Of a DNA stretch of 64,000 bases, positions 3,869-42,575 are shown piece after piece. A program made the translations under genes and the position numbers. Position 1 is the first letter of the stretch. Each line of letters starts with the position of its first letter. Source of the DNA: an uncultured beta proteobacterium (GTDB taxonomy: Bacteria; Pseudomonadota; Gammaproteobacteria; Burkholderiales; Casimicrobiaceae); contig CAVOXS010000003.1 of NCBI GenBank assembly GCA_963700415.1, forward strand, positions 45,256-109,255, written 5' to 3'. The notes below the pieces were generated by a model that was not told the origin of the DNA, made no database searches, and saw nothing but the letters and a program-made list of their open reading frames with translations.

Positions 3869-3953
3869 TCCGTGTCGTCGTCCCAGACAGGCGAATCTTA
3901 CACAGGGTCGGGACCGGGACGCGGAACGAACACCGCGGCGCGAGCGGAACCTG

Positions 3954-4838: not shown

Positions 4839-4860
4839 CCGGGTTACCTCCACGGTTGCG

Positions 4861-5879: not shown

Positions 5880-5883
<4 letters not shown>
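4861..5883 (-). CDS. peptide ABC transporter ATP-binding protein (DppF/OppF-like)
   Basis: Starts MSALLQAIGLSRHF. It has Walker A GESGCGKST, the signature FSGGQRQR, Walker B LICDEP, and the C-terminal oligopeptide-type extension (HPYTRALL, CHFHQRCP). ATGA overlap with the upstream ATPase gene. Confidence 0.9.
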
Positions 5884-6856
<973 letters not shown>

Positions 6857-6860
<4 letters not shown>

Positions 6861-8707: not shown

Positions 8708-8753
8708 TCTTCGGTTCGCGGAACGCGCGGCGGGGCAGGGGTCCCGACGGCCT

Positions 8754-9455: not shown

Positions 9456-9690
9456 CGCCCCCCGCGCGCTGCACGGGAACCGCCCGCCTGCCGCCGGATC
9501 AGTTCCCTATAGTTCCGAACGGAACAATTGCTGGTGCATCGCGCCGATGTTGACATTGCGATCGCACCGCGTCAACATCCATTTGGAACCAATTCACCCG
9601 CCTCCTCGCCCTCGCCAGCGCATGCTGCAACGGAAGACCTCGCCGGACAGCGAAACGCGCGCGCCGCCTGCCGCCGCGCAAGGTCCGGCC

Positions 9691-10192
9691 ATGCCCGCGG
9701 TGCCGGAAGGCATGAATCCGATGATCGGGGTCAAGCTCTGGCACAATCCCTGCCGCCTGTCGTTTCGGGTGAATTTCATCGCCCACCATTTCAACCAGCC
9801 GATCTACGACTGGATCGCGCGCAACCACCAGCTCACCGAACCCGAGCACGTGGTGCTGTACGCGATCGGACTGCGCGAGGGGATCACCGCCGAGGACGTG
9901 GCGGCGTCGTCTTCGCGTCCGCGCAATACCCTGAGCCGGGCGGTCAATCGTCTGCTGGGCCGCAAGCTGATCCATCGCAAGCAGGACGCCGGCGATCGCC
10001 GCCGGCGCCAGCTGTACCTGACCGGATCCGGTCGCGCGGATTCTCGACGAAACCGTGCCGCTGCTGGTGGCGCGGGAGGAAGCGCTGACCGGGTCCCTGA
10101 GCGCGGAAGAACGCGAAACGCTCAACTACCTGATGACGAAAGTCATCCTCAACCAGGCCGCATGGCCGACGCGAATCGACAGGAGGGACTGA
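9691..10192 (+). pseudogene. MarR family transcriptional regulator, frame interrupted by one extra base near 10036-10039
   Basis: MPAVPEGMNPMIGVKLWHN...TLSRAVNRLLGRKLIHRKQDAGDRRRRQLYLTGSGRA reads in one frame. ILDETVPLLVAREEALTGSLSAEERETLNYLMTKVILNQ...RRD* reads in the +1 frame. The span is 502 nt (3n+1). The choice of start codon (9691, 9712 or 9721) is uncertain. Confidence 0.75.
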
Positions 10193-10195
10193 CCC

Positions 10196-11791: not shown

Positions 11792-11878
11792 CCGGATGAT
11801 AGCCATTCAGCGGCAGCGGGCCGGCGCAGGAAGCGCGGTGGTCACCATTCGCCGGCACCGGGCCGGTAACAGGTCCTC

Positions 11879-12832
11879 GTGATTGCGATCGGCATCCACG
11901 GCGGCTGCGGCACGCTGCCTGTGGAAATGATGAGCGCGGCGCAGTGGGACGAGGCGCGCGCTCATCTCGCCGACGCGCTGCGCGCGGGCTGGGCGCTGCT
12001 GGCGCGCGGCGAAGCGGCGCTGGATGCCGTCGAAGCCGCGGTGGTGGTGATGGAGGACAGCCCGTACTTCAACGCCGGCTACAGCGCCGCGCTGAACACC
12101 GATGGCGAGCACGAGCTCGATGCGTCGATCATGGACGGCGCGGCCTTGCGCGCCGGCGCCGTGTGCGCGGTGCGTCGCATCCGCAATCCCGTGCGCGCGG
12201 CACGCGCGGTGCTCGATCACGGTGCCAGCGTGCTGCTCGCCGGACCGGCGGCGGATGCGTTCGCGCAGGCACGGGGGATCGCGATGGTGGAGCCGGGCTA
12301 CTTCACCACCGAGCGTCAGGTCGTGGCTCTCGCGCGCCTCAAGGCGCGGGCCGAGGACGGGACCATCGCGATGGCCGGCGAGGCCGAGAAGCACGGCACG
12401 GTGGGCGCGGTGGCGCTCGACGGGCAAGGCAATCTCGCCGCGGCAACGTCGACCGGCGGATTCAACAACAAGCCCGCGGGCCGGGTCGGCGACACTCCGG
12501 TCGTCGGCGCGGGGATCTATGCGCGCAACGGCGTCTGCGCGGTCTCGGGCACCGGGCAGGGCGAAGTGTTCATCCGGCTGGTGGCCTCCTACGACGTCGC
12601 CGCGCGCATGATGTACGCCGGCCAGTCGCTCGAAAGCGCGGCGAACGCCGTGGTCCACGACGCGCTGTCCGCGCACAGGATCGGCGCCGGGATGATCGCG
12701 ATCGATGCGGCCGGGAAGGTGGTCGCGCCGTTCAACACGATCGGGATGTACCGCGGCTGGGTGACGACCGAGGGCGAGCTGACGGTGGCGAGCCACAAGG
12801 AGGAGCGCCGGCTCGGCCGGCTCCCCCGCTGA
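11879..12832 (+). CDS. isoaspartyl peptidase / L-asparaginase (Ntn hydrolase)
   Basis: 317-aa ORF with a GTG start. It has IAIGIHGGCG, the autoprocessing site HGTVGAVALD, and GTGQGEVFIR. Confidence 0.85.
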   Translation: MIAIGIHGGCGTLPVEMMSAAQWDEARAHLADALRAGWALLARGEAALDAVEAAVVVMEDSPYFNAGYSAALNTDGEHELDASIMDGAALRAGAVCAVRRIRNPVRAARAVLDHGASVLLAGPAADAFAQARGIAMVEPGYFTTERQVVALARLKARAEDGTIAMAGEAEKHGTVGAVALDGQGNLAAATSTGGFNNKPAGRVGDTPVVGAGIYARNGVCAVSGTGQGEVFIRLVASYDVAARMMYAGQSLESAANAVVHDALSAHRIGAGMIAIDAAGKVVAPFNTIGMYRGWVTTEGELTVASHKEERRLGRLPR

Positions 12833-12834
12833 CC

Positions 12835-13911
12835 GTGGCGCATCCCGACACACCCGCCGCGCCGGATGCGGCCGATCCCATCCTGATCTGGGGCGCGGGC
12901 GCCATCGGCGGCACGCTCGGCGCGTACTGGGCCCGCGCGGGCATTCCGGTGCTGATGGTCGATGTCGTCGAAGAGCACGTGCGAGCGTGCCGAAGCAGCG
13001 GCCTGTCGATCACGGGCCCGGTGGAGGCGTTCAAGGTGATCGTGCCCGCCGTCACCGCCGGCGAGCTCCCGCCGGGCCGCCGCTACTCGCGCGTCGTGCT
13101 GGCGGTGAAGGCGCTTGCCACCGAGAGTGCGGTCGCGCAGCTGGCGCCGTTCCTCGCCGAGGATGGCTACGTCCTGTCGGCCCAGAACGGCCTGAACGAA
13201 ATCGCGATTGCCGCGCGCGTCGGCAGCGAGCGGACCATGGGCTGTTTCGTCAACTTCGGCGCCGATTGGCACGGTCCGGGCGAAATCCTCTATGGCAACC
13301 GCGGCGCGGTGGTGGTCGGCGAGATCGACGGTTCGATCCGGCCGCGCACGCGCGATATGCATTCGCTGCTCCGCGTGTTCGAGCCCGACGCGGTGCTGAC
13401 GGACAACATCTATGGCTACCTGTGGGGCAAGCTCGCCTACGGGGCGATGCTGATCGCCACGGCGCTGACGCCCGACTCGATGGCGGAGAACTTCGCCGAT
13501 CCGCGGCGGCGCGTGGTGTTCGAGCGTCTCGGCTGCGAGGTGATGGCGGCGGCGCAAGCGCGCCGCGTCGATCCGGTCGGTTTTGGCGATTTCGATCCCC
13601 GCGCTTTCCTGCCCGCGGGATCGGCAGCGCAAAGAACGCGGGTGCTGGACTGGCTCGCCGACTACACCGGCCGGACCGCCAAGACGCACTCGGGCATCTG
13701 GCGCGACCTCGCGGTGCGCAAGCGCAAGACCGAAGTCGAGACCCAGATCGGCATCGTGACCACGCTCGCCGGCGAAGTCGGCGTGGGCACGCCGGCACTG
13801 GCCCGGCTGGTCGCGCTGATCCGCGATATCGAGGACGGCCGGCGCGAGCAGTCCTTCGCCACCTTTCAGCTGCTGATCGACGCATGCCGGGCGGATTCGA
13901 GCAACGGATAG
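12835..13911 (+). CDS. 2-dehydropantoate 2-reductase (ApbA/PanE) family oxidoreductase
   Basis: Tail of ORF 11944..13911. The probable GTG start at 12835 lies just after the upstream stop. It has the Rossmann motif ILIWGAGAIGG and a family-like C-terminal domain (YLWGKLAYG). Confidence 0.75.
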   Translation: MAHPDTPAAPDAADPILIWGAGAIGGTLGAYWARAGIPVLMVDVVEEHVRACRSSGLSITGPVEAFKVIVPAVTAGELPPGRRYSRVVLAVKALATESAVAQLAPFLAEDGYVLSAQNGLNEIAIAARVGSERTMGCFVNFGADWHGPGEILYGNRGAVVVGEIDGSIRPRTRDMHSLLRVFEPDAVLTDNIYGYLWGKLAYGAMLIATALTPDSMAENFADPRRRVVFERLGCEVMAAAQARRVDPVGFGDFDPRAFLPAGSAAQRTRVLDWLADYTGRTAKTHSGIWRDLAVRKRKTEVETQIGIVTTLAGEVGVGTPALARLVALIRDIEDGRREQSFATFQLLIDACRADSSNG

Positions 13912-14633
13912 CGCTCGTCACCGGCGCCGCACAGGGCATCGGAGCGGCGATCGCACGGGCGCTCGCGGCGGAGGGTGCCTGCGCGCACCTGGTCGACATC
14001 GCCGACATTCCGGAGTCGAACCGGCCACGGGGCGCGACGGCGCACCGCTGCGATCTTTCGCGGCGCGCGGAGGTGCAGGACCTCGTCGGCGGCATCGAAT
14101 CGCGCGGCGGGCCGATCGACATCCTGGTCAACGCGGCGGGCGGGGTGTGCGGCCAGCAGGGTCAGCCGATCGAGTCGGTGAGCGAAGATGGCTGGCGGGC
14201 GCTGTTTGCGGCGAACGTCGACAGCGCGTTCTGGCTGGCGCAGGCGGTCGCGCCGTCGATGCGGCGGCGTGGCCGCGGCAGGATCGTGTTCATCGCTTCC
14301 GGTGCCGGCCTGCGCCCGAGCCTCACCGGGATCCAGGCCTATACCGCGGCCAAGCACGCGCTGGTGGGCCTGACCCGGCAGCTGTCGCAGGACCTGGGAC
14401 GATACGGCATCACCTGCAACGCGGTCGCGCCGGGTTTCGTGCGCTCCAACCCGGCCACCGAGCGCCAGTGGGAGAGCTACGGCGAGGAAGGACAGAGGCG
14501 CCTGGTCGAAAACATCCACGTGCGCCGCCTGGGCACCGCCGACGACATTGCGAATGCGGTGCTGTTTCTTGCCGGCGACAAGGCGTCCTGGATCTCGGGT
14601 CAGGTCCTGTCGGTCGACGGCGGGCGATCGTAG
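13884..14633 (+). CDS. SDR family oxidoreductase (FabG-like)
   Basis: ATG at 13884. Motifs: TGAAQGIG, NAAG, the catalytic YTAAK, and a C-terminal SGQVLSVDGG. It overlaps the previous gene by 28 nt. Confidence 0.85.
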   Translation: MPGGFEQRIALVTGAAQGIGAAIARALAAEGACAHLVDIADIPESNRPRGATAHRCDLSRRAEVQDLVGGIESRGGPIDILVNAAGGVCGQQGQPIESVSEDGWRALFAANVDSAFWLAQAVAPSMRRRGRGRIVFIASGAGLRPSLTGIQAYTAAKHALVGLTRQLSQDLGRYGITCNAVAPGFVRSNPATERQWESYGEEGQRRLVENIHVRRLGTADDIANAVLFLAGDKASWISGQVLSVDGGRS

Positions 14634-14748
14634 CGGGGCCGGTTCGATGTTGATCTGCCCCGCGCGCGCGGCGGATCGCGCGGGTCCGGGCAGGTCCCGG
14701 TCGACATGGAAGTTGCCGCTGCGCGCATGATGTCCGGCCGCGTTCCGG

Positions 14749-17700
14749 TCAGTGAAAATCCCGCGACCGGGTTTGCAGATCGCCCAGCAGCGCAGAGAGG
14801 TCCGCGAGCCGTCCGGCGAGGACGTGGACGACCTGCCCCTCGCGCTCCACCTTGCCGAAGACCGCGAGCAGCTTCGCGCCGAGCAGTTCGCGGCGCTGGC
14901 GCTCGCCGACGTCGCGCCAGACGATCACGTTGGTGGCGCCGGTTTCGTCTTCGAGCGTGACGAAGACCACGCCGCTCGCGGTGTCGGGCCGCTGCCGGCC
15001 GATGACGATTCCCGCGGTGCGGACGATCCGGCCCGGCGGCGCCCGCGCGATCTCGGCCGCCGTGGCGAGCCGCCGCCGCTGCAGCTTGTCGCGCAGGAGA
15101 GCCAGCGGGTGCCGCCGCAGCGTGAGCGACAGCGTGCGGTAGTCGGCGACGATGTCCTGTCCTTCGGTCGGCGGCGGCAGCACGGGATCCGCGGTGTCGA
15201 AAACGCTGCCTGCGAGCAATGCCGGCAGCCGCTCGACGCCGGCGACCCCCCACGCCGCGTCGTGCCGATGACCGGCGAGCGCCGCGAGCGCGTCGGCCTC
15301 GGCCAGGCAGGCGAGGTCGCGGCGGTCGAGCCGCGCGCGGTGCGCGAGGTCGGCGACACTCGCGAAGGGCTGCGCGCTCCGGGCTTCGACGATCCTGCGC
15401 GCGCCGGATTCGGAGAGTCCGGCGACGAGACGCAGACCCAGGCGCAGCGCGGGAGAAAGCAGGATCGGGGTCGGACACGAATCTTCATTCCGGCCGATCG
15501 CAGGAGGAAGGCCTTGCCGAAGATTCGCATCCGACCCCGATTCCGCCGGCCGAATTTCTTCCAGCGTGCAGTCCCACTCGCTCGTCGTCACGTCCGCGGG
15601 GCGCACCTCGACGCCATGCCGGCGAGCATCCTGCACGAGCTGCGAGGGCCCGTAGAAGCCCATCGGCAGCGAGTTGAGCAGCGCGGCGCAGAACGCGGCG
15701 GGCTCGTAGCGCTTCAGCCACGCCGACACGTAGACGAGCAGCGCGAAGGAGGCCGAGTGCGATTCCGGAAAGCCGTACTCGCCGAAGCCCAGGATCTGCT
15801 GGTAGATCTGCCGCGCGAAGCCTTCGGCGTAGCCGCGCGCGCCCATGCCGTCGATCAGTTGCTGCTCGAATTTCTCGAGGCCGCCCTTGCGCCTCCAGGC
15901 GGCCATCGAGCGCCGCAGATGGTCCGCCTCGCCCGGCGTGAATCCCGCCGCGACGATCGCGAGCTGCATCACCTGCTCCTGGAAGATCGGCACGCCGAGC
16001 GTGCGCGCGAGCACGCTCTGCACCGCTTCGCTCGGATAGGTGACGGGCTCCAGACCTTGCCGGCGGCGCAGGTACGGATGCACCATGCCGCCCTGGATCG
16101 GGCCGGGGCGCACGATGGCGACCTCGATCACGAGGTCGTAGAAGCACGCGGGCTTGAGCCGCGGCAGCATCGCCTGCTGCGCGCGCGACTCGATCTGGAA
16201 CACGCCGATGGTATCGGCGCGCTGGCACATCGCGTAGACCTCCGGGTCCTCGGCCGGAATGTCCTGGAGGGTCAGCGGCGCCAATGGGGTCAGAGTCGAT
16301 ATGCCGGCGCGCGATTCATGATCGCTGCGCGGTGGATGGAAATTCGACTCTGACCCCATTCCGGAGCGCCGCCATTGCGGGGAAATGTGACCTGACCCCA
16401 ATTTCGACACCATGTCGAGGCAGCGCCGGATCGCCGACAGCATGCCGAGCGCGAGGCAATCGACCTTCAGCAGGCCCAGCGCGTCGAGATCGTCCTTGTC
16501 CCACTGGAGGACGGTGCGCTCCGCCATCGCCGCATTCTCGACCGGCACCATCCGCTCCAGCAGGTCGCGCGCGATGACGAACCCGCCGACGTGCTGCGAC
16601 AGGTGGCGCGGGAAGCCCATCAGCTCGCCCGTCAGCTTGACGAGACGGACGAACATCGGGTTGTCGGGCTCGAACCCCGCCTCGCGGACACGCTCGGGCC
16701 TGACCTCGCGGCCGTCCCACCACGCGAACATGCCGGCGAGCCGGTCCACCTGCGCAAGGTCGAGGCCCAGCGCCCGGCCGACATCGCGCACGGCGCTCTT
16801 CGGCCGGTAGGTGATGAGCGTCGCGGCGAGCGCCGCGCGGTCGCGGCCGTATTTCGCGTAGATGTACTGGATGACTTCCTCGCGCCGCTGGTGCTCGAAA
16901 TCGACGTCGATGTCGGGCGGCTCGTTGCGCTCCTTCGAGATGAACCGCTCGAACAGCATGTTCATGCGCGCGGGATCGACCTCGGTGATGCCGAGCGCGT
17001 AGCAGACCGCCGAGTTGGCCGCCGAGCCGCGGCCCTGGCAGAGAATGCCCTGCGCGCGCGCGAAGGCGACGATGTCGTGGACGGTGAGGAAATACGGCTC
17101 GTACTTCAGTTCCGCGATCAGCGCGAGCTCGTGCTCGATCAGCGCCCGGACGTCGGGAGGGCAGATCGCATCCGCGGGGACAGACCCCGATGCCACGCGG
17201 GGAATCGGGGTCTGTCCCCGAATGCCGCGCGGGAAGCCGTGGCCGGTCCCCGCATACCGCCGCGCCAGTCCCGCTTCGACCAGTGCGCGCAGATGCGAGG
17301 CCGGCGTCTGCCCCGGCGGGACGATTTCCTCCGGATACTCGTAGCGCAATTCGTCCAGCGAAAACGCGCAGCGCCGCGCGATGGCGACAGTCTCGGCGAG
17401 CAGCTCGGGCGGGTAGATCGTCGCGAGTCGTGCGCGCGAGCGCAGATGCCGCTCGCCATTCGGATGGAGCGCGTAGCCGCATTCGGCGAGCGGCTTCCTG
17501 ACGCGGATCGCCGTGAGCGTGTCCTGCAGCGCGCGCCGGGCGCGCACGTGCATGTGAACGTCGCCGGCGGCGACCTGCGGCAGGCCTGTCTGCCGTGCCA
17601 GCGCCGCGCAGCGCGCAAGCCGGGCGCGGTCGCCGGCACGGGCGAAGAGTTCGACCGCGAGCCACGCGCGGCCGGGAAAGACGGCGGCAACCCAGCGCGC

Positions 17701-18234
17701 GATGGCGAGGGTCTCGCCATCGCGGGGAACGGGAATCGGATACGGGCCGATCGGGGTCGGATGCGAATCCTCATCAGAACCGTCCCCCTGTGTGCGGCCG
17801 GAATGGGAATTCGTATCCGCCCCCGATCCCGACTCCGATCGCCTCGCCGGCTCCGGCGGCACCCACAGCGCGAGGAGCCCGTCCGCGAACGTCGCGACGT
17901 CGTCGCGGGACAGCGCGTAGCGGCCCTTCTGCGCGCTGCGCCGCCCGCGCGTGATCAATTGCGCGAGGTTGCCGTAGCTCGCGCGGTCGGTGGCGAGCAG
18001 CACGAGCTTCACCCCGTCGATGAGCGCGACCTCGCTGCCGATGACGAGCGGAAGGCCCGCGTGCTTCGCTGCGAGATGCGCGCGGACGATGCCCGAGAAC
18101 GAGCACTCGTCGGTGATCGCGAGCGCCGCGTAGCCCTGTGCCCGGGCGCGCTCGACCAGTTCCTCCGGGTGCGACGCGCCGCGGAGGAACGAGAAATTCG
18201 ACAGGCAGTGCAGTTCGGCGTAGGCGGGGAGCAT
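14749..18234 (-). CDS. dnaE2: error-prone DNA polymerase DnaE2 (ImuC), intact but carrying four in-frame repeat insertions
   Basis: ATG at 18234 ([24 protein letters not shown] domain). Further motifs: [28 protein letters not shown], and the C-terminal OB fold [18 protein letters not shown]. The gene has 1161 codons. The 51-codon upstream extension in the ORF track covers the operator region and is rejected. Confidence 0.92.
15464..15541. repeat. 78-nt palindromic repeat unit (copy E1) inside dnaE2
   Basis: atcggggtcggacacgaatcttc...gaagattcgcatccgaccccgat. The terminal inverted repeats match at 21/23. The unit is exactly 26 codons and is translated as [26 protein letters not shown]. Confidence 0.85.
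16283..16360. repeat. 78-nt palindromic repeat unit (copy E2) inside dnaE2
   Basis: aatggggtcagagtcga...tcgactctgaccccatt with perfect 17-bp terminal inverted repeats. It is 78 nt long. The left-arm pattern GGGGTCrGAnnCGAATyTyCAT is shared with E1/E4. Confidence 0.85.
16381..16403. repeat. solo right-arm copy of the same repeat
   Basis: ggaaatgtgacctgaccccaatt versus the E2 right arm ggaaattcgactctgaccccatt, about 18/23 identical. It lies 20 nt after E2 and is also translated within dnaE2. Confidence 0.6.
17176..17251. repeat. GGGGACAGACC/GGTCTGTCCCC-type palindromic repeat (copy E3) inside dnaE2
   Basis: A perfect 16-bp inverted repeat ggggacagaccccgat / atcggggtctgtcccc is separated by 12 nt. 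It is followed by a gggaagcc-containing arm shared with the lexA and imuA leader copies. The outer boundaries are approximate. Confidence 0.75.
17750..17827. repeat. 78-nt palindromic repeat unit (copy E4) inside dnaE2, inverted relative to E1
   Basis: Its reverse complement aligns without gaps to E1 at 62/78 positions by hand count. It has the same ATCGGGG...CCCCGAT ends, the same 78-nt length and the same codon phase. Confidence 0.85.
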
Positions 18235-18286
18235 CGGGATCGCCGCAACGGGGTGCCAGGCACAAGGGTCGCGCGCGCGGAGATAG

Positions 18287-18302
18287 CCGTGTAAATATAC
18301 GG
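18287..18302 (-). promoter_or_regulatory. candidate LexA operator (CCGT-N8-ACGG), proximal to dnaE2
   Basis: ccgtgtaaatatacgg, which reads CCGTATATTTACACGG on the dnaE2 strand. It lies 53 nt upstream of the dnaE2 ATG. The same palindrome type sits in the lexA promoter. Confidence 0.6.
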
Positions 18303-18315
18303 TATTCGACAATGA

Positions 18316-18331
18316 CCGTATGAATAGACGG
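18316..18331 (-). promoter_or_regulatory. candidate LexA operator (CCGT-N8-ACGG), distal to dnaE2
   Basis: ccgtatgaatagacgg, which reads CCGTCTATTCATACGG on the dnaE2 strand. It starts 29 nt from the start of the proximal box. Confidence 0.55.
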
Positions 18332-18426
18332 TCGGCATGGCGGGGAAGAGGCGGCGAGGAAGGGCCCTGTCGCGGTCCGCCGGCCATCGCCGCGCAAAGG
18401 CCGGTAAGATGCCGGCTCCGCCGTGC

Positions 18427-18467
18427 GGGGACAGACCACGGCTTCCGCGGAACTCGGGTCTGTCCCC
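18427..18467. repeat. short GGGGACAGACC/GGTCTGTCCCC hairpin repeat in the dnaE2 / M14 peptidase intergenic region
   Basis: ggggacagaccacggcttccgcggaactcgggtctgtcccc, ending 21 nt before the peptidase ATG. Confidence 0.8.
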
Positions 18468-18488
18468 AAGCGACAGGAAAGCCACGCC

Positions 18489-20176
18489 ATGCCCGCCATC
18501 GCCTTCGACCGTTTCTACCGCTACGCCGACCTCACCGCGATCCTCCAGGCCTTCGCGGCCGAGCATCCGGGCCTCGTGTCGATCGAATCGATCGGCAAGA
18601 GCCACGAGGGCCGCGACGTCTGGGTGCTGACCGTCACCAGCGCTCGCCACGGGCCCCGCGGCCGAGAAGCCGGCGTTCTGGGTGGACGGCAACATCCACT
18701 CGACCGAGGTCGCGGCATCGGCGGCGAACCTTTACTTCCTGCACACGCTTGGTCACCGGGTACGGCAGCGATCCCGACGTGACCCGGGCGCTCGACACCC
18801 GCGCGTTCTACGTCTGTCCGCGGATCAACCCGGACGGCGCCGAATGGGCGCTCGCGGACAAGCCGAAATGGGTCCGCTCGAGCACCCGCCCGTATCCGTG
18901 GGACGAAGAGGAGATCGACGGGCTCACCGTCGAGGACGTCGACGGCGACGGCCGGATCCTCCAGATGCGCATGCCCGATCCCAACGGACTCTGGAAGGAC
19001 CACCCCGAGCAACCGGGCCTGATGATCCGGCGCGACCCCGTCGAAACCGGCGGCAGCTATTACCGGATACTTCCCGAAGGCACGATCGAGGGTTGGGATG
19101 GCTTCACGTTACGAGTGAAGAAAAATAAGCAGGGACTTGATCTGAATAGAAATTTCCCGGCGAACTGGCGCCAGGAGTTCGAGCAGCTCGGTGCCGGGCC
19201 GTTTCCAACCTCGGAGCCCGAGGTCCGCGCGGTCGTGGAGTTCGTCGCCGGCCATCCGAACATCACCGGGGGCGTCGCCTTTCACACCTGGAGCGGCGTG
19301 CTGCTGCGTCCGTTCGACCATCAGTCCGACGCGGAGATGCACGCCGAGGACCTCTGGCACTACCGGAAGGCCGGGGCGAAGGGGACCGAGCTGACCGGCT
19401 ATCCGGCGATCTCGGTCTACGAGGAATTCCGCTATCACCCCAAGCAGGTCATCGGCGGCGCGTTCGACTGGATCTACGAGCACCTCGGGATGTTCAGCTG
19501 GGTGGTCGAGATCTGGAGCCCGATGCACGAGGCCGGCATCAGGAACTACAAATACATCGACTGGTTCCGCGACCATCCGATCGAGGACGACCTCAAGCTC
19601 TATCGCTGGAACGTCGAGCAGCTCGGCGGGGCCGCGCACATCCCGTGGCGGCCGTTCGACCATCCGCAGCTGGGCCGCATCGAGATCGGCGGCTGGAACC
19701 GCTTCCACGCGTTCGGCAACCCGCCGCCGGCGTTCCTCGAGCGCGAGATCGCGCGCTTCCCGAAGTGGCTCCTCTGGCAGGCGCTGACGTCGCCGAAGAT
19801 GGAGCTGGTGGCGGCCGCAGCCGACCCGCTGGGCGACGACCATTGGCGCGTCCGGCTCGTCGTCCAGAACACCGGCTGGCTGCCGAGCTACGTCTCGAAG
19901 CGGGCGCTGGAGCGCAAGGTCGTGCGCGGAGTCATCGCCGAGATCGCGCTGCCCGCCGGCGCCGATCTCGTCCACGGCAAGCGGCGCGAGGACCTGGGCC
20001 AGCTCGAAGGCAAGTGGGGCAAGCACACCGGCGTGTCCTTCTGGCCCGACTACAACGTGACCGACGATCGCGCGAAGATCGAGTGGGTCGTGCGGGGGCG
20101 CAAAGGCGACCGGATCGACCTCGTCGCGCGACACGAGCGCGCCGGCACGGTGCGCGCCGCGGTGACGCTTGGCTGA
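18489..20176 (+). pseudogene. M14 family zinc carboxypeptidase, two +1 frame breaks near 18650 and 18750
   Basis: Three frames carry successive parts. [50 protein letters not shown] is in frame 0. PAAEKPAFWVDGNIHSTEVAASAANLYFLHTL is in frame 1. VTGYGSDPDVTRALDTRAFYVCPRINPDG...NRNFP...FHTWSG is in frame 2. The span is 1688 nt (3n+2). Confidence 0.8.
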
Positions 20177-20221
20177 TCGCCCGTTGGGAGCGGCCATGGC
20201 GATGCGGTTCGGCGCAGGCGA

Positions 20222-20993
20222 GTGCAGAGCCGTCGTCCCGGCCTTCGGCGGCTCGCCGCGCGCCTGCTGGTCGCTGCGGCGGCCGGGCTCGCGGCCATTG
20301 GCGGTGCCGCGCAGGAACCGCGCGGAAGGGGCGGCTCGAAGCATCGAGCACATCATCGTCATCTACGCCGAGAACCGCAGCTTCGATCATCTCTACGGCC
20401 TGTTCCCCGGCGCCAACGGCATTGCGCAGGCGACCCCGGCCGAGTACACGCAGGTCGATCGCGACGGCGCGCCGCTCGCCGAGTTGCCGCCCGCATGGCG
20501 CGGCAGAGACGCCGACCCGGTCTTTCCGCACCGGCTGCCGAACCGGCCGTTCCGCCTCGACGCGCCGCCGTTCGACCTGCCGCTGTCGCAGCGCGTGCGC
20601 AGTGCGGTGCACCGGTATTACCAGAATCGCGAGCAGATCAACGGCGGGCGCAACGACCGCTTCGCGGCAGTGTCCGATGCCGGCGGCTTCGTGATGGCGC
20701 ACTACGACGGCTCGAAGCTGCCGATGTGGCAATGGGCGCGCGACTACGTGCTCGCCGACAATTTCTTCATGGCGGCCCACGGCGACTCGTACCTCAATCA
20801 CCAGTGGCTGATCTGCGCGTGCACGCCGCGCGACGAGAACGCGCCGGCCAATCTGCGCGCGCAGGTCGACGGGCGCGGCTGGCTGAAGCGCCGTCCCGGC
20901 TCGCCCGCCTCGGCGGGCGACGGCAACCTGCTGCTGTTCGATGGCAGCGTGACCCCCGATGGCTACGTCGTCAACTCGGGTTACGCGCCGTAA
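20222..20993 (+). pseudogene. phosphoesterase (phospholipase C / acid phosphatase AcpA family), 5' half only, plus a +1 frame break near 20312-20340
   Basis: The signal-like MQSRRPGLRRLAARLLVAAAAGLAAIGGAAQ is in one frame. IEHIIVIYAENRSFDHLYGLFPGANG...NGGRNDRF...SYLNHQWLICACTP is in the next. The ORF stops at ...DGYVVNSGYAP, roughly half the usual family length. Confidence 0.65.
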
Positions 20994-21049
20994 GTTTCTG
21001 CGCGTAGCCCTCCCCGACGAACGGCGCGCCGGCCTGCCGGCGGAGGCCC

Positions 21050-22011
21050 TTGCGCTCGTCGAGCAGGACGGTGGACGAGACCGGTGAACTCGAAGTGCTC
21101 CACTTCGACCACGCCGATCCGGCCGACGATTTCTATCTTCATTTTCTGCGCACGCCCAAGGGCAGGTTCTCGCTCCATTTCGCGGGCAGGGTGCCCGACG
21201 CAGCCGCCGGCAAGAGGGTCCGTGTCCGTGGCGTCAAGCTGCGAGCAGGCCATCGTTCTGGCCAACGCCGGCGACATCACCACGGCTCACGGCCATCGCC
21301 GATCGGGGCGGCGCTGCCGGGCACGCTGGGCGCGCAGAGGACGCTGGCGATCCTGGTCAACTTCCGTGACGCGCCGACGCAGCCGTTCTCTGTCGCGTAC
21401 GCGCAGGGTCTGATGTTCGGCACGACCAGCAACTACGACTACGAGACCTCGTACCAGCAAACGTCGCTGACCGGCGATGTCGCGGGCTGGTTCACGATCG
21501 CGGAATCGAGCGGCGCGTGCAATTACGGCAATATCGCGGCACAGGCGCGACAGGCCGCTACGGCGGCGGGCTACGCGCTCGCGAATTACGCGCGGTACGT
21601 CTACGTGTTCCCTGCCAACACCTGCGCCTGGTGGGGGCTGGGTTCCGTCGGCGGCAACCCTTCGCAGGCGTGGATCCACGCCAAGTGGGGCTTCACGCTG
21701 CCGGTGGTCGGGCATGAAATGGGTCACAACTTCGGTCTCTATCACTCGCATTCGCTCGACTGCGGCGCGGTTTCCATCGCGGCTGGCGGCTGTGCGTGCC
21801 TCCGACTACGGCGACATCTTCGACATGATGGGCAGTTCCAACACCACGCCCCACTACAACGCCTTCCAGAAAGAACGCCTCGGATGGCTCAATTCCGGGG
21901 TGTCGCCGCCGATCACCACCGCTATCCGCGGTGCCGGGAACGACCAGCCACACGATCGCGCCGATCGAGGATGCCCGAAACGGCGTGCCGCGGGCACTCA
22001 AGATTCCGCGC
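21050..22011 (+). pseudogene. zinc metallopeptidase core (HEMGHNFGLYH; gametolysin/M11-like), lacking N- and C-terminal parts, with frame breaks near 21797 and 21928
   Basis: ELEVLHFDHADPADDFYLHF...TLGAQRTLAILVNFRDAP...WWGLGSVGG...VVGHEMGHNFGLYHSHSLDCG is followed by SDYGDIFDMMG...AFQKERLGWL (+1 frame) and then AVPGTTSHTIAPIEDARNGVPRALKIPRG (+1 again). There is no signal peptide or credible start. The M11 family assignment is tentative. Confidence 0.6.
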
Positions 22012-22762
22012 GGAATCGGCGCGGCGGGAACGCTCTTCGTCGCAGGTTGCGAGCGGCTGTCCAACAGCGACTGGTTTCCGAAGGTCCTGAGCGCCGGCGA
22101 GACGGCAAGCGCCGCGGCGGCGCGCGCAGTGACCTCGCGCAAGTCGATGGCGCAGGAGTTCACCGATGCCGATCGCTCGCCGACCTTTCGCAGCAATGGA
22201 ACCGCGGAGCCGGACAGCGATGCCTATCGGCTGCTCGCGGCGAACGGGTTTGCCGACTACCGCCTGGAGGTCGGCGGGCTCGTCGCGCAGCCGGCCAGCC
22301 TTTCGCTGGCGGACCTGCGCGCGCTGCCGAGCCGGACGCAGATCACGCGGCACGATTGCGTCGAAGGCTGGAGCGCCATCGCGAAGTGGAAGGGCGCACG
22401 GCTCTCAGCGCTGCTCGAGGCGGTGCGACCGGGGCCCCGTGCGCGGTTCGTCGTGTTCCATTGCGCCGATCCCATGGAAGCCGGCGGCGCCAGTCCCTGT
22501 TACGAGAGCATCGATCTCGAGGATGCGTTCATCCGCAGGACTATCCTGGCCTACGAAATGAACGACGCGGTGTTGCCCGTCGCCAACGGCGCTCCGGTCC
22601 GATTGCGCGTCGAACGGCAGCTGGGCTACAAGCACGCGAAGTACGTGATGCGCATCGAACTGGTCGAAAGCTTCGCCGGGATCGCGGGCGGGAAGGGCGG
22701 TTACTGGGAGGCACCAGGGCTATCAGTGGCCCCGGTCACGCATTCCCGAATACGCCGTGTAA
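22012..22762 (+). pseudogene. molybdopterin-dependent oxidoreductase (sulfite oxidase / YedY-like fold), missing its own start and fused in frame to the peptidase remnant; probable +1 break near 22711
   Basis: GIGAAGTLFVAGCERLSNSDWFPKVL looks like the end of a Tat/lipoprotein signal. Further motifs: FRSNGTAEP, SRTQITRHDCVEGWSAIAKWKGARL, APVRLRVERQLGYKHAKYV. The expected C-terminal GGYWE-HQGYQW continues in the +1 frame to TAA at 22760-22762. Confidence 0.65.
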
Positions 22763-22975
22763 AAACCACTCGCCGTCGTCGATCCCGTAGCGGTGATCGC
22801 GATAGATCCACACGGTCTCGCCGCGCGGGTTCTCGGCGACGAAGTAATCGCGGCGCACGTCGCGGCCGTCCCACCATCCCGACTCGATCCGCTCCGGCCC
22901 GTCGCGCAGCACCCACGGTTGCGCTTCGAGCCGGTGACCGAGCGGCTCCGGCTCGGCGAGCAGCCAGACCGGGCG

Positions 22976-23060
22976 GGGGACAGGCCACGGTTTTCGAAGC
23001 GGTCGTTCGGCTGTTCCCGTGAAATCGCGTGGCCTGTCTCGGACAAGTCGATTCTGACCC
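22976..23060. repeat. composite palindromic repeat inside imuB (GGGGACAGGCCACG...CGTGGCCTGTC unit plus a GTCGATTCTGACCC half arm)
   Basis: gggggacaggccacgg...cgcgtggcctgtctc followed by ggacaagtcgattctgaccc. If it begins at 22975 its length is 86 nt (3n+2), which equals the frame change seen across it. Confidence 0.75.
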
Positions 23061-23760
23061 TGCTTTCGCGCCACGCGCGCTCGGGCCGGTGCTCGGCGTG
23101 CGGCGCGACGAGCGTCACCGCATCTTCGCCCAGCCGTGCGCGCAAGCGGTCGAGCAGCGGAACGGTCGCGAGCTGCCTCGTCCCCGGGGAAGAGGCCGAG
23201 GTTGCGGCTGGCCAGAGGGGCGGTCGCCTTGCTCGCGAGCGTGATCGCCTCGACCGGCGCCGGCAGCACGATGCGCGCGAGCCGCTCGCGCAGCACGGCG
23301 ACGAGATGCGCGGGCTCGCGCGCCGGCGCGGCGAGCGCGAAGCCGACGATGGTGGCGGGCACGCCGGTCGCAACACGGACGTAACGCTCGTGCGCGAGCA
23401 CGAGCGACATTTCGACGACACCGAGCCCGCGGCCCGTGAGCCATCCCGCCAACTCGAGCACGAGCCGGTTCACCGCGAACGCGAGCGCGTCGACGCTTGC
23501 CACCGGCGCCGGCAGGTCGAGTTTTCCCGTATAGCCCGGCGGCGGCACGAACGGCGGTCGCGGCTCCGGGACGAGCCCGCGCACGCGATCGAGAATGGCG
23601 ACGAAATCCGCGCCCACGCGCCGTGCCAGCGCGGCGCGCGGCAGCGCGCACGCCTGCCCGAAGGTCGTGATGCCGGCCGCGGCGAGCGTCGCGACGGCGG
23701 CGGGATCGGCTTCGGTGAGAGAGAGCGGCAACGGGAGAAGCGCGTCGAGCCAGGACATGC

Positions 23761-23840
23761 GGGCGAATCAGGCGCGGACGTTTGCTCGATCGCTCCCGGT
23801 CTTGCTCGCGAGAGCTGCCGGAAAAGCGGGATCTGACCCC
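23761..23840. repeat. degenerate ~80-nt copy of the GGGGTCAGA-type repeat inside imuB, carrying the in-frame stop
   Basis: The right arm ccggaaaagcgggatctgacccc resembles the E2 arm. The degenerate left arm is gggcgaatcaggcgcgg. The TGA at 23768-23770 falls in the TCAG core of the left arm. Confidence 0.55.
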
Positions 23841-24341
23841 GCCGTTGCCGCGCGCGCGAACAGCAGGGCCGCGGCGGGCGTGGGCGCGAGCGCGAGCCGC
23901 GTGGCGTAGCCAAGGTCGTGCGCGCCCCGGGAAAGCCTTGCGCTCAGCTGCGGCAGGCCGCCGAAGAGCCGCAGGCTGCCGCCGATCTCCGCGAGCACCG
24001 CGTCGGGCGGCGCGAGCGCGACAGCCGGCGTGAACTGCGTTGCCCAGGACGCCACGGCTTCGAGCGCGGCGGACTCGGCATCGGGTCGCGGTCGCGCAGC
24101 ACGAGGTCGGGCGCGAGCGCGAGCGACGCCGAGACGAGCTGTCCCGGGCGGATCCCGGCGTCGCGCGCGCCGGCATTCGCGTCGACGATGCGCGGCGTGC
24201 GCCCGCCGCTGCCCACCGCGAACGGCTTTGCCGCCTCAGCGGGCGAGGCCGCCCGCGCGAAGACGTCGAGGGGCAGCGAGGGCAGAAGCAGGCACGCCCA
24301 GAGCATGGCGGATGGCGGCAACGCGCGCGGGCCTGTTCACG

Positions 24342-25052
24342 CTACGTCGGCAAGACGTGTGGCGGGCGCAAACGGCCGGACGCGAGCGCACGGCCCGCGC
24401 TGGTGCGAGGATCGAGGAGCGGCGGGACGCCGCCGGCGGCATCCACGTCGAGGCATACCGGCTGCGCGAGCTCGCCGCCGCGGCGCTTCAGCACGTGCAC
24501 CGCGAGCCGGCCCTCCCGCGGGGCGAGTGCCAGCCGCAACGACGCGGTGGCGGCGATCGCGCGCTGGCCGGGACGCCGCCACAGCACGCCCCAGGTGCGA
24601 CCCTCGCGCGCGGCGACCGCGAGCCTGCGCATCGTGCGGTCGTCGTGCGGGCCGAGCCACGCGAACGCGGCGCCGCATCCGGGCGCACGCAGCGCCTGCT
24701 CGTAGGCCCACAGCTGATCCGCCGGGTTGCGGCAATGGACGACCAGCAGCCGCGCGAGATCGAGCCCCGCGGCAGCGAGCGCCGGCGCGTACGGCACATG
24801 GGGCGGCGCGATCCAGACGACGTCACGGCCCTGTGCCTGCAACCGCGCGAGCGCCGGCAGCGTGAGACGGATCTCGCCGATGCCCTCGCGTTCGAGCACG
24901 ATCTCGGTCAACGCGGCTCCCGGCCAGCCGCGACCGGGCAGCACGGCATCGAGCGCGGGAAAACCCGACGGCAACGCGGCGGGCTCGGGCGCGCAGTCGC
25001 CGCCGCGCCAGATGGCGGGGTTGGACAGCACGGCGGCGAGGGCGGGATTCAT
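24342..25052 (-). CDS. imuA: ImuA (RecA/SulA-like SOS mutagenesis protein)
   Basis: MNPALAAVLSNPAIWRGGDCAPEPAALPSGFPALDAVLPGRGWPGAALTEIVLEREGIGEIRL..., 236 aa. It forms the lower part of ORF 24342..26207 and lies directly upstream of imuB. Confidence 0.85.
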   Translation of the reverse strand: MNPALAAVLSNPAIWRGGDCAPEPAALPSGFPALDAVLPGRGWPGAALTEIVLEREGIGEIRLTLPALARLQAQGRDVVWIAPPHVPYAPALAAAGLDLARLLVVHCRNPADQLWAYEQALRAPGCGAAFAWLGPHDDRTMRRLAVAAREGRTWGVLWRRPGQRAIAATASLRLALAPREGRLAVHVLKRRGGELAQPVCLDVDAAGGVPPLLDPRTSAGRALASGRLRPPHVLPT

Positions 25053-25120
25053 GGGGACAGACCATGCTCTTCCGGCAGGCTTCGCACGGGCAATGTCGGG
25101 GACAACGCGGTCTGTCTCCC
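25053..25120. repeat. GGGGACAGACC/GGTCTGTC-type palindromic repeat filling the VOC-imuA intergenic gap
   Basis: ggggacagaccatgctcttccggcaggcttcgcacgggcaatgtcggggacaacgcggtctgtctccc. It abuts the imuA ATG (25052) and overlaps the VOC stop codon (25120-25122) by 1 nt. It is about 80% identical by hand alignment to the lexA leader copy. Confidence 0.85.
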
Positions 25121-25579
25121 TATGCTCCCATCGCCTTCGCCGCGCGTTTTTCGAGCTCGTCCGGCGGAACGTCTTCGACGTGAGTGGCGAGATACCAGTG
25201 ATAGCCGAACGGATCGTCGACGCCACCGGTGCGATCGCCGTAGAACTGGTTCGCGACCGGCCGGGTGAGCGTAGCACCGGCGGCGACGGCCTGCGCGACC
25301 GCGCGTCGACATCCTCGACATAGACCATCAGCGAGATCGGCGAGCCGCCGAGGGTGCGTGCGCTCTTCGCGCCCATCTCGGGGATTCGTCGGCGAGCATG
25401 ATCGGCGAATCGCCGATCCGGATCTCGGCGTGGCCGATCTTGCCGCCGGGAGCCGGCATGCGCAGCAGCTCGACGGCGCCGAACGCTTTCCGGTAGAACT
25501 CGAGAGCGCGCGTGGCATCGTCGAGGATGAGGTAGGGGGTGACCGAGTGGTAGCCCTCGGGAATCGGTTTCACGGCCAT
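25120..25579 (-). pseudogene. VOC family protein (glyoxalase/PhnB-like), two -1 frame breaks near 25384 and 25303
   Basis: MAVKPIPEGYHSVTPYLILDDATRALEFYRKAFGAVELLRMPAPGGKIGHAEIRIGDSPIMLADE is followed by PEMGAKSARTLGGSPISLMVYVEDVDA, then AQAVAAGATLTRPVANQFYGDRTGGVDDPFGYHWYLATHVEDV..., in three frames. The span is 460 nt (3n-2). AGGAGG lies before the ATG. Confidence 0.8.
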
Positions 25580-25672
25580 GGGTTGCCTCCTGCAAGGTTG
25601 TGACGAGGGTCGGGCGAGCGTGGCGCCGGCGTCGATGCAACGACCGTCGGCATCCCGCTTCGCGCCGGTGCT

Positions 25673-26305
25673 TCAACCGGCCGGCCAGTGCTGCGCGAAC
25701 ACCGGCGCGACCTTGGGTTGTGCTTCGATGCGCAGCAGCGTTTCGTGGAACGCCGGACGCGCCTGCTGCAGATGCGCCCGGGATCCCGACCATTTCGACA
25801 CGACGGCGGCGAGGATGTCGAGCGCGCCGATCTTCTCGCCGCCAAGGTATGGCCGCGCCGGAAAGAGATCGGCGAACATTTCCCAGTGCCGGTGCAATCG
25901 CGCGCGCGAGCCCACCCGGATGCGCTCCTGCATCGCCTCGTCCGCGTTCTCGCACCAGCGCCCGGGAAAATCGATGATGCTGATCGCGGCGTAGCAGTTC
26001 GCCGCGATGAACACCAATCCCCGGATCGCCTGCGCCCGCGCCGAGGCGTCGCGCGGCAGGAGCCCGCTGTCCGGGTGCACGCTGCCGAGATGGATGAGGA
26101 TCGCCGCGCTTTCGGAGAGCACGCTGCCGTCGGGCAGCACGAGGGTCGGAATCTGGCCCAGCGGATTCAGTTGCAACAGCTCGGCGAACGCATCGTTGGG
26201 TTCCCACGATGCGGTCTCGACGACGCGATACGGGGCGCCGATGATTTCCAGCGCGGCCTGCGTCGACGCCGAGCCTGAGCCTTTCTTGCCATAGAGCGTG
26301 TACAT
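25673..26305 (-). CDS. glutathione S-transferase family protein
   Basis: MYTLYGKKGSGSASTQAALEIIGAPYRVVE...NPLGQIPTLVLPDGSVLSESAAILIHL, 210 aa. The RBS is GGAAAAGGAGG. It starts 26 nt after the lexA stop. Confidence 0.85.
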   Translation of the reverse strand: MYTLYGKKGSGSASTQAALEIIGAPYRVVETASWEPNDAFAELLQLNPLGQIPTLVLPDGSVLSESAAILIHLGSVHPDSGLLPRDASARAQAIRGLVFIAANCYAAISIIDFPGRWCENADEAMQERIRVGSRARLHRHWEMFADLFPARPYLGGEKIGALDILAAVVSKWSGSRAHLQQARPAFHETLLRIEAQPKVAPVFAQHWPAG

Positions 26306-26331
26306 GACGCCTCCTTTTCCTGCTTTTCCGC

Positions 26332-26964
26332 TCACCAGCCCTTGCCCTGGCGCACGAGCCCGACGGCCACGCCCTCGATCGTCAGCGGAGCCTTCTTCGG
26401 GTCGACGACGATCGGCTCGAAAGCGGGGTTTTCGGCGACGAGCAGAATCTGCCCGCCGCGGCGCTTCAGGCGCTTCACCGTGACCTCGTCGCCGCCCCGT
26501 CCGGGGAGCCGCGCGACGACGATCTGTCCCGAGCGGGCGTCGGCGGTGCGGTGCACGGCGAGAAGATCGCCGTCGAGGATGCCGGCGTCCTTCATGCTCT
26601 GGCCGCGCACGCGCAGCAGGTAATCGGCGCGCGGCGCGAACAGCGCGGGGTCGAGCCGCACGTGCGCCTCGATGTGCTCGGTCGCGAGGATCGGGCTGCC
26701 GGCGGCGACGCGCCCCACCAGCGGCAGGCCCGTGCCGGGGAGATCCGGCGTCTCTTTCAACCGCAGTCCGCGCGACGCGCCGGGCGTGAGTTCGAGCGCG
26801 CCTTTGCGGGCGAGCGCGCGCAGGTGGTCTTCGGCCGAGCTCGCCGTGCTGAAGCCCAGGCCCGCGGCGATTTCGGCGCGCGTGGGCGGCATGCCCGTGG
26901 ACTCCAGGTGCCGGCGGATCCAGTCGAGGACCTTCTGCTGACGGGCGGTGAGCGGGATCGACAT
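26332..26964 (-). CDS. lexA: LexA repressor
   Basis: [39 protein letters not shown] (winged HTH). It has the cleavage site VAAGSPILA and the Ser/Lys dyad region [12 protein letters not shown]...VTVKRL. ATG at 26964. The longer ORF-track start reads through the repeat. Confidence 0.9.
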
Positions 26965-27035
26965 GGGGGACAGACCACCTTCTTTCGGGAAGCCTCGCAC
27001 GAGCGGTGTCGGGGACAAGAACGGGGTCTGTCCCC
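26965..27035. repeat. GGGGACAGACC/GGTCTGTCCCC-type palindromic repeat forming the whole lexA 5' leader
   Basis: gggggacagaccaccttctttcgggaagcctcgcacgagcggtgtcggggacaagaacggggtctgtcccc. It sits directly between the operator/promoter and the lexA ATG. Confidence 0.85.
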
Positions 27036-40505: not shown

Positions 40506-40544
40506 AATACACGGTTTCCCCGCGCGTCCCCGGATCCCCTCGCC

Positions 40545-42575
<2,031 letters not shown>

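Follow-up and report, generated by a model that had tools for sequence, protein, structure and literature searches.

Rickettsia palindromic elements (RPEs), which Ogata et al. are said to have described in 2000, are reportedly mobile hairpins of ~100 nt that insert in frame at surface-exposed positions, the affected genes staying functional. Here we describe small hairpin-forming repeats in the SOS mutagenesis genes dnaE2 and imuB and in the leaders of imuA and lexA of an uncultured soil betaproteobacterium and its relatives, starting from a stretch of 64,000 nt of contig CAVOXS010000003.1 (assembly GCA_963700415.1), which is called the window below. The copies are strongly concentrated in and directly before these genes, and those inside coding sequences are in-frame additions at a few positions of the error-prone DNA polymerase DnaE2 and of its partner ImuB. 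With moderate confidence, this distribution points to an insertion that is biased towards SOS-induced units, combined with a selection for in-frame copies in loops.

The closest described case is the catalogue of intragenic repetitive extragenic palindromic sequences (REPs) by Di Nocera, De Gregorio and Rocco (2013; BMC Genomics 14:522, PMC3733652), according to which such REPs are concentrated in genes of DNA synthesis and repair including dnaE2. They are short palindromic repeats, often dimers, which encode 20-30 aa or more in frame, and in many species genes of repair and replication are the only coding sequences tagged by them. Among the cases listed are dnaE2 of Opitutus terrae (aa 934-971) and of Sphingomonas wittichii (aa 166-246) as well as dnaE of Rickettsia conorii (aa 853-861). 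For the authors of this catalogue, a fortuitous origin of the pattern was improbable; they speculated on mutator effects and left the cause unexplained (PMC3733652). The elements described here are equally palindromic repeats lying in frame inside repair genes, which are nearly the only coding sequences affected. The present case is the same unexplained phenomenon, with an RPE-like behaviour. It adds, however, families without the GTAG or CGTC end tags of those REPs, copies in imuB and in the leaders of lexA and imuA, which are not listed in the supplement of that study, and, in place of single cases per genome, four hot spots in one gene with turnover in more than 100 orthologues and with a control protein. 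A search of the literature for a link of dnaE2 or imuB with REPs yielded nothing besides this catalogue.

As with the RPEs, hairpin insertions add peptides in frame to a DnaE2 that is otherwise conserved and apparently functional. RPEs, however, are spread over many unrelated genes with no focus on one pathway, and their sequence families and hosts are unrelated to the present ones. REP stem-loops also stand between cistrons of operons, as between malE and malF of E. coli. Likewise, copies of a type which we call leader-type lie between the cistrons of lexA-[GST-VOC]-imuA, where they could stabilise the upstream mRNA and lower downstream expression; here, however, the 3′ arm lies against the start codon of the downstream gene, and one of the copies belongs to the 5′ untranslated region (UTR) of the first gene.

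REPINs are mobilised by REP-associated tyrosine transposases (RAYTs), and hairpin repeats of the IS200/IS605 and RAYT type move as single strands (Bertels and Rainey, 2011; PMC3116915). The A-type elements of this study resemble them in being two inverted short palindromes (GGGGACAGACCCC) that form a longer hairpin; other Burkholderiales genomes have several copies of related hairpins (among the matches listed), and arm changes are matched on both sides. Yet REPINs are almost wholly extragenic, number tens to hundreds per genome and are associated with RAYTs, whereas here the flanks are nearly empty, the GTAG tag is absent and no RAYT is found among the window open reading frames (ORFs) given to Pfam. 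MITEs, or miniature inverted-repeat transposable elements (Coxiella, PMC5896051; review, PMC10969869), are alike in their length of 70-90 nt, their terminal inverted repeats (TIRs), a variable centre and occasional in-frame coding insertions, but for the present elements neither a target-site duplication nor a parent insertion sequence was identified.

Hairpin elements in the SOS units

The window was compared with five orthologous loci of 23 kb, giving a set of 180 kb from six genomes. L121 to L128 are working labels of related loci, P0001 and P0003 are DnaE2 proteins from databases, and P0003 is an insert-free DnaE2 of the L122 type. By protein search, the relatives of the window DnaE2 belong to uncultured Casimicrobiaceae and Burkholderiales. 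Discrete hairpin elements were resolved by inverted-repeat and BLAST searches, and their folds were compared with shuffled controls.

The core GGGGACAGAC has nine exact matches in the window against 0.14 expected, a number that none of 100 shuffles reached, and GGGGTCAGA and GGGGTCGGA match three and four times, respectively; the GGGGTCGGA match at 36991 was rejected as a repeat copy, being tRNA-Cys. About ten hairpin elements of at least four families lie at 14.7-27.1 kb, hereafter the SOS-repeat region, and the other 51 kb hold one element and one half-site. Ten of 12 copies fall within 19% of the window (binomial p = 3e-6). The elements are 33-90 nt long, their folding energies being well below those of shuffled controls, with z-scores from -2.2 to -6.5 overall and from -3.6 to -6.5 for the strong hairpins:

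15459-15546, minus strand: E1, hairpin of family D (~88 nt) that lies in frame at hot spot 4 of DnaE2, following CTLE, with an encoded stretch of 27 residues, related to E4
16283-16360, minus strand: E2, family S hairpin of 78 nt with 17-nt perfect arms, DnaE2 hot spot 3
16380-16405, minus strand: older family T relic arm beside E2 (AAATTGGGGTCAGGTCACATTTCCCC), DnaE2 hot spot 3
17170-17254 (core 17175-17220), minus strand: E3, A-type REPIN-like hairpin, DnaE2 hot spot 2
17232-17254, minus strand: relic A half-element beside E3, matched by A1 at 91% (17254-17232)
17745-17830, minus strand: E4, hairpin of family D that lies in frame at hot spot 1 of DnaE2, following LALWVP
18427-18467: A1, A-type hairpin 21 nt upstream of the ATG of the M14 peptidase gene, ~95 nt beyond the dnaE2 LexA boxes
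22977-23040, minus strand: imuB element, leader-type (A arms and a long loop), ImuB linker hot spot B, ~aa 385-430
23041-23060, minus strand: S-family arm relic adjoining the leader-type element of imuB
23760-23850, minus strand: insert of ImuB hot spot A, after LLFARA, with GGGGTCAGA core and in-frame TGA at 23767-23769
25053-25122, minus strand: A4, 70-nt leader-type hairpin filling the VOC-imuA spacer and ending at the imuA ATG
26966-27035, minus strand: A2, 70-nt leader-type hairpin in the lexA 5′ UTR, 3′ arm ending 1 nt before the ATG
48881-48912: A3, sole A-type hairpin outside the SOS-repeat region, between convergent HAD-hydrolase and LuxR-type genes
8201-8212: A-type arm standing alone (GGTCTGTCCCCG) within an ABC permease ORF, no partner arm

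A preliminary reading of the letters alone (the sequence-only reading) had counted four or five copies in dnaE2, which resolve into four sites, two of them compound, and the copies it had placed upstream of dnaE2, at the VOC/imuA junction and in the lexA leader were all recovered. Of its two imuB copies, the one at 22977-23040 is solid; the second (~23832) is weak and is treated as a degenerate remnant, because only the 9-mer core is common and no convincing hairpin is formed. What it had taken for the single outside copy is indeed the only full element there (A3, in a typical REP position between convergent genes), with the solitary arm at 8201-8212 besides. A shared ATCGGGGTC core is present as claimed, and "superfamily" is reasonable as a descriptive term for the whole, which covers at least four distinct families.

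Family D comprises E1 and E4, the former folding with -62.3 kcal/mol (15450-15555; z = -6.5). Family S (E2; consensus GAAAnnGGGTCAGACTCGACTTTTC, ~32 nt, GAAAAGTCGAGTCTGACCCnnTTTC) is common to L121, L126 and L127, and family T is represented by the relic arm in the window and by an intact copy at the E2 site (DnaE2 hot spot 3) in L121. The hairpins of family A are short and composed of two GGGGACAGACC(C) units in inverted orientation (E3, A1, A3 and the relic at 17232-17254), with a fold of -45.2 kcal/mol for E3 (17165-17230; z = -4.8). A1 was not found at the orthologous place in L122 or L121. The leader type is a 70-nt variant with A-type arms and a conserved 30-nt loop, present before lexA, before imuA and inside imuB. 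The multi-copy families occur at several sites and in several genomes. Overall, these small repeats form hairpins, are non-autonomous and come close to REPs/REPINs or MITEs, with at least four families among them.

The concentration in the SOS units extends over all six genomes. In an unbiased inverted-repeat scan of the 180 kb, every hairpin with arms of at least 17 nt was located in dnaE2 or imuB. BLAST searches with the families placed 19 of 21 clusters in dnaE2, imuB or upstream of lexA, imuA and dnaE2, which together make up ~18% of the sequence (p = 1e-12). Intergenic sites were occupied in 6 of 25 cases in SOS units versus 1 of 133 elsewhere (Fisher p = 6e-5), and outside the SOS units only one copy was found in ~150 kb of flanks. 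At least half of all copies are intragenic, and all intragenic copies lie in dnaE2 or imuB. The length of DnaE2 varies by 140 aa, whereas neighbouring proteins are near-constant across the genomes (Pyr_redox 474-478 aa, VTT 235-243 aa).

In-frame insertion into DnaE2 and ImuB

In the window, the reading frame of dnaE2 stays open through four stop-free insertions and encodes 1161 aa. The DnaE2 of the syntenic locus L122, whose flanking residues are ~90% identical to those of the window, has 1027 aa and is without all four inserts, only a solo D-type arm (CCGACCCCGATC) being left at hot spot 1. L121 encodes a DnaE2 of 1160 aa with other elements at the same four positions, where site 1 holds an S element, site 3 an intact T element and site 4 a hairpin with 23-nt arms. 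The comparison of related loci that had been suggested in the sequence-only reading thereby reveals differences in presence and absence between genomes. At hot spot 2 of the L121 gene (10961-11076) an in-frame 42-nt unit is repeated 2.8 times (PWVGLQPDIPPQEK), each unit with a small GTCGGGCTTCAGCCTGAC hairpin.

Compared with P0003, the extra residues add up to 10 or more in 119 of 120 DnaE2 orthologues, which have a length of 1026-1220 aa. Insertion recurs after residues 126, 292, 548-552 and 792-794 of P0003, and extra segments of at least 10 aa are present at these hot spots in 57, 60, 16 and 88 orthologues, respectively. An exception are three orthologues in which residue 870 is followed by ~30 additional ones, and large inserts at any other internal site are limited to at most three of the 120. 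A frequent module of 87 nt corresponds to exactly 29 codons and encodes EKVGSDSTF-x11-EKSSLTLLS; a profile search with this 29-aa module (doubled query) against 5.8e9 sequences returned two irrelevant matches, E-values being uninformative in a database of this size.

All four sites appear as breaks or extra residues in the alignment with E. coli Pol III alpha and are located in a loop of the PHP domain, at the PHP/palm junction, at the palm/fingers junction and in a late loop of the fingers; they also match the only columns of variable length in the comparison of the orthologues. AlphaFold models all four inserts as coil with pLDDT <50, which is weak support for surface loops because the whole model is poor (pLDDT 60; shallow alignment of 60 sequences). 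At three of the hot spots in the window, copies of two families are nested or lie side by side, and in the 120 orthologues the inserts often belong to different repeat families, decayed and unrecognisable inserts being common. As the same hot spots hold other families and nested or decayed copies, repeated insertion and turnover are indicated, and since the inserts differ between genomes with ~90% identical flanking coding sequence, the insertions arose in place. In the sequences compared, an intragenic copy appears to persist only where it is in frame and free of stops, at four loops between DnaE2 domains and at two linkers of ImuB.

In imuB, the leader-type element at 22977-23040 has an orthologue in L122 (7662-7721), and S elements occupy the same hot spot B in L126 (7675-7744) and L127 (3104-3173). 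For the S element, ImuB uses the stop-free frame that is not used in DnaE2 (SRVRLDF..RKIESDP), and a TGA lies in the third frame. Between the orthologous S elements of L126 and L127, two positions of each arm are changed (TCAG/CTGA versus CCGG/CCGG) with the hairpin kept, which could be due to compensatory evolution, to homogenisation of the arms or to replacement by another subfamily. The insert at hot spot A makes the window protein 31 aa longer than that of L126 and forms no clear hairpin. Only one of 150 diverse ImuB representatives has a clear element, at the same linker (GTDPIF..NGVCPHF); the phenomenon therefore tracks lineages where such repeats are active.

The window imuB itself carries a 1-nt deletion near 24081, the TGA at 23767-23769 and an additional nucleotide near 23172. 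Through the latter, the conserved stretch LLDRLRARLGEDAV..HRPERAW is not in frame, and the frame returns just past the repeat, at ~22965. In L122, imuB has an independent additional nucleotide ~10 nt from that of the window.

Proposed biased insertion, and tolerance

The copies could have been inserted at random and could, without any function, have persisted wherever permissive loops and linkers of the conditionally expressed dnaE2 and imuB allowed it. Such pure tolerance is possible, but we consider it somewhat unlikely. It would fit with all intragenic copies being confined to a few length-variable inter-domain positions, with the coil predicted for all inserts in the (overall poor) AlphaFold model and with the frequency of decayed inserts. 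REP-tagged DnaE2 proteins are moreover known from unrelated phyla, and the REP of Rickettsia dnaE (~aa 853-861) is possibly near hot spot 4 (PMC3733652). Random insertion should, however, fill neutral intergenic DNA first, whereas the ~150 kb of flanks in the six genomes hold one copy, and the leaders of the SOS units are enriched as well. In addition, purifying selection on DnaE2 is as strong as on its neighbours, and its identity outside the inserts is that of the neighbouring genes.

RNase E has a long disordered tail and was used as a control. The protein has 986 aa, of which only ~55-75% aligns to orthologues in the lineage, and none of six element-encoded motifs was detected in 120 RNase E orthologues, which derive partly from the same contigs. 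In DnaE2, motifs of the GS[DE]STF type were present in 30 and those of the KSSLT type in 24 of 120 orthologues, compared with 0 of 120 for RNase E (p = 2e-10). As the flanking intergenic DNA is almost empty, the RNase E tail has none of the motifs and the SOS leaders are occupied, tolerance alone is insufficient; it rather seems to set where inside the proteins copies can survive. The earlier suggestion of tolerance in dispensable genes thus holds for the confinement of the copies to few variable loops and linkers, but it does not agree with the conservation of DnaE2 or with the empty RNase E tail and the almost empty intergenic flanks.

The reading which we prefer assumes that insertion is biased towards LexA-controlled mutagenesis units. 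The elements would move via single-stranded hairpin intermediates, probably with the help of a Y1 (RAYT/IS200-like) transposase encoded elsewhere in the genome. DNA damage would create single strands and stalled forks and thereby cause the elements to move, at a time when the LexA units would be the most strongly induced genes and, by GC skew, would be transcribed head-on to replication. In each of the six loci, the C-rich strand is the one that codes for DnaE2, and this suggests such a head-on orientation. Additional copies might be drawn to resident hairpins, and in this way the nested ones would arise; purifying selection on the conserved, functional DnaE2 would remove out-of-frame copies and those outside permissive loops. 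SOS-linked targeting, one of the options raised in the sequence-only reading, is in line with the enrichment of coding and non-coding LexA units alike (for the latter, see the intergenic sites above), but it is not demonstrated. A more far-reaching version, in which transposition is mechanistically coupled to the SOS response, the elements "live" in lexA-imuA-imuB and dnaE2 and the leader hairpins serve as a post-transcriptional brake on the polymerase, appears unlikely.

Several points weigh against a bias towards SOS units. The BLAST queries were drawn from the SOS genes themselves, although the unbiased inverted-repeat scan agrees with their result, and the background density derives from ~150 kb of flanks only. 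RNase E is an essential, highly expressed control for which selection against hairpins could differ. The head-on orientation is derived from GC skew only, and since the loci have it in common through synteny, the six do not count as independent evidence. The gene uvrB is uninformative as a test of the bias because it has no LexA box upstream. No transposase or RAYT is present among 30 ORFs given to Pfam, which all come from the window and represent a part of its ORFs, and a comparison of filled with empty sites revealed neither a target-site duplication nor a common target sequence.

The length variation of DnaE2 and ImuB in soil Burkholderiales is mostly selfish DNA and should not be taken for a gain of domains. 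The ImuB partner carries two hot spots beside the four of DnaE2, and an insert-free natural allele (P0003/L122) is at hand for comparison. This opens tests of an SOS-aimed single-strand transposition, of a tuning of mutasome expression by hairpins and of the effects of loops on DnaE2-ImuB function. The interest would be higher if the SOS coupling or a regulatory role were true.

Leader copies of lexA and imuA

The 3′ arm of the leader-type elements ends 0-2 nt before the start codon and pairs the region from -1 to -20. Their stem has up to ~19 bp, with 13-14 uninterrupted pairs in the window copies, and the predicted folds reach -35.6 kcal/mol for the lexA copy (z = -3.6) and -36.1 kcal/mol for the imuA copy (z = -4.3). 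Orthologous copies are present at both lexA and imuA in L122, L123 and L125, and at lexA also in L124. L125 has a third leader-type copy before GST. A search of a metagenome collection with the loop pattern returned lexA and imuA sites only. All leader-type copies have one orientation relative to transcription. They are ancestral to a small clade and may have an effect on translation. In L125 (2200-2290), the imuA leader element apparently replaces the last 27 codons of VOC: the VOC alignment stops at residue 126 of 153, with a stop codon directly before the element.

It has to be considered whether the hairpins were domesticated and kept as a restraint on the mutasome. The leaders would then sequester the starts of lexA and imuA or protect the upstream mRNA, and the intragenic copies would act as RNA-level brakes or add function through their peptides. 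The position of the leader elements 0-2 nt before the starts, their folds of ~-36 kcal/mol, their occurrence at lexA and imuA alike in four genomes, with a further one before GST in L125, and their uniform orientation would all agree with such a role. The same applies to the imuA upstream spacer, which holds three different hairpin families in three lineages, the short hairpin before imuA in L126 being unrelated and that of L127 being an S element. Still, we find this domestication quite doubtful. L126 has no element before lexA, families turn over between close relatives, and P0003 is without any DnaE2 insert. The identity of the two leaders between the window and L122 (86% and 80%) is not above that of third codon positions (86-93%). 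Covariation is negligible, the variation being too small for any RNA structure other than the palindrome itself to be supported, and an Rfam search of 14-28 kb gave only sub-threshold chance matches. With a leader identity close to that of third codon positions and little covariation, there is thus no sign of selection for the leader copies. The regulatory role proposed in the sequence-only reading is conceivable for the lexA and imuA leader copies abutting start codons, and only for those, their conservation not exceeding that of synonymous sites. Judging by their position, the leader hairpins probably damp or uncouple the translation of lexA and imuA, seemingly as a side effect.

Cassettes of imuA-imuB-dnaE2 are mobile across bacteria, as was reportedly described by Erill et al. 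in 2006. An acquisition of the whole cassette from a repeat-rich donor, as the sequence-only reading had offered among its explanations, is nevertheless very improbable, as the cassette is syntenic in L122, L126 and L127, its G+C content is like that of the flanks (~69% throughout the window), and the inserts arose in place and differ between genomes with ~90% identical flanking coding sequence, one relative having none. Chance or an artefact of long-read metagenome assembly, which the resemblance of the window and several related loci to long-read assemblies with frequent 1-nt indels might suggest, is hardly credible in view of the shuffle and binomial statistics, of independent JGI contigs and proteins that show these inserts and leaders as well, and of an ORF that stays open through four insertions.

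Relation to other repeats

Elements of the A-type form aaatcGGGGACAGACC(A/C)CG(A/T)TTT, loop, AAACGTGGTCTGTCCCCgattt are found across many Beta- and Gammaproteobacteria, at times with several in one genome (among the matches listed). A scan of a genome collection with the pattern GGGGACAGAC-N(12-42)-GTCTGTCCCC proved to be non-specific, with at least 120 loci in Collinsella, Acidobacteria and others, and none of the 120 loci among the matches listed adjoins SOS genes. The A-type hairpin is a generic REP/REPIN-like repeat.

A terminal GTAG/CTAC or CGTC/GACG tag was absent from all copies, two CGTC matches and one GACG match being internal only. Core sites of attC (RYYYAAC / GTTRRRY) were likewise not detected in any copy. 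The elements have arms that resemble TIRs and are 17-25 nt long; a parent insertion sequence was not seen in the window. Viral contigs and PLSDB plasmids contained no copies of the S family.

Gene context

The genes and control sites concerned are arranged in the window as follows:

14749-18234, minus strand: dnaE2 (error-prone DNA polymerase), intact 1161-aa ORF, identified from its translation, 100% identical to P0001
18287-18303 and 18316-18332: two LexA-box-like palindromes (ACCGT-N8-ACGG) in the divergent region between dnaE2 and the M14 peptidase gene
22736-24306, minus strand: imuB, broken in this assembly by 1-nt indels and one TGA
24342-25052, minus strand: imuA, identified from its translation, with 92% identity to the gene that stands between VOC and imuB in L122
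25120-25579, between imuA and GST: VOC, frameshifted
between VOC and lexA: GST
26332-26964, minus strand: lexA, 94% identical to L122 LexA (LexA_DNA_bind and Peptidase_S24)
27065-27049, minus strand: putative LexA box of lexA, palindrome ACCGTATATCCATACGG after the promoter, the promoter/box site being kept in L122-L125
27099-27072, minus strand: lexA promoter-like site, near-consensus TTGACG-16-TATAAT

All DnaE2 matches have the Pfam architecture PHP/DNA_pol3_alpha/finger/HHH_6. Between dnaE2 and imuB, the window has an oppositely oriented M14 peptidase gene and further genes. As two lexA-like boxes precede dnaE2, the gene is a separate LexA-type unit; the relatives have one box, and one is kept in L122 and L121. 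The LexA operator of beta- and gammaproteobacteria is usually CTGT-N8-ACAG. The presumed operator of this lineage is TACCGTATATNNATACGG (CCGT-N8-ACGG), a form kept in L121-L126. The conserved gene orders in relatives are M14-dnaE2-PyrRedox-VTT and lexA-GST-VOC-imuA-imuB. Elsewhere in the window, uvrB (40506-42575) has neither a repeat nor an upstream LexA-type box, and the RNase E gene (44242-47202) is without repeats.

The names of the related loci, which are contigs called "contig_N" in ENA assemblies, suggest long-read assemblies. Many window genes (VOC, imuB, M14, LysR, Sua5 and fragments of a binding protein) show 1-nt indels or apparent truncation. Two 1-nt frameshifts each were noticed in VOC and in M14 (18489-20176), and none in dnaE2, lexA, GST, imuA and ADH. 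The frameshifts of imuB, VOC and M14 are either long-read errors or real decay. At 21000-22700, a metallopeptidase-like gene (HEMGHNFG motif) is apparently split over at least two frames, with no clean ORF in a GC3 screen.

The content of the operon varies in the lexA-imuA interval (window 25123-26305; L123 3136-3220): it holds GST and VOC in the window, L122, L125 and L126, and in L123 lexA is directly followed by imuA. A gene of the DinB_2 family stands between imuA and imuB in L126 (5901-6497) and L127 (1158-1760). The ~10.9 kb between Pyr_redox and dnaE2 in the window (3900-14748), with genes for a polysaccharide deacetylase, an ABC peptide-type transporter, a creatininase and an asparaginase, are not present in L122, L126, L127 and L128, where Pyr_redox and dnaE2 adjoin.

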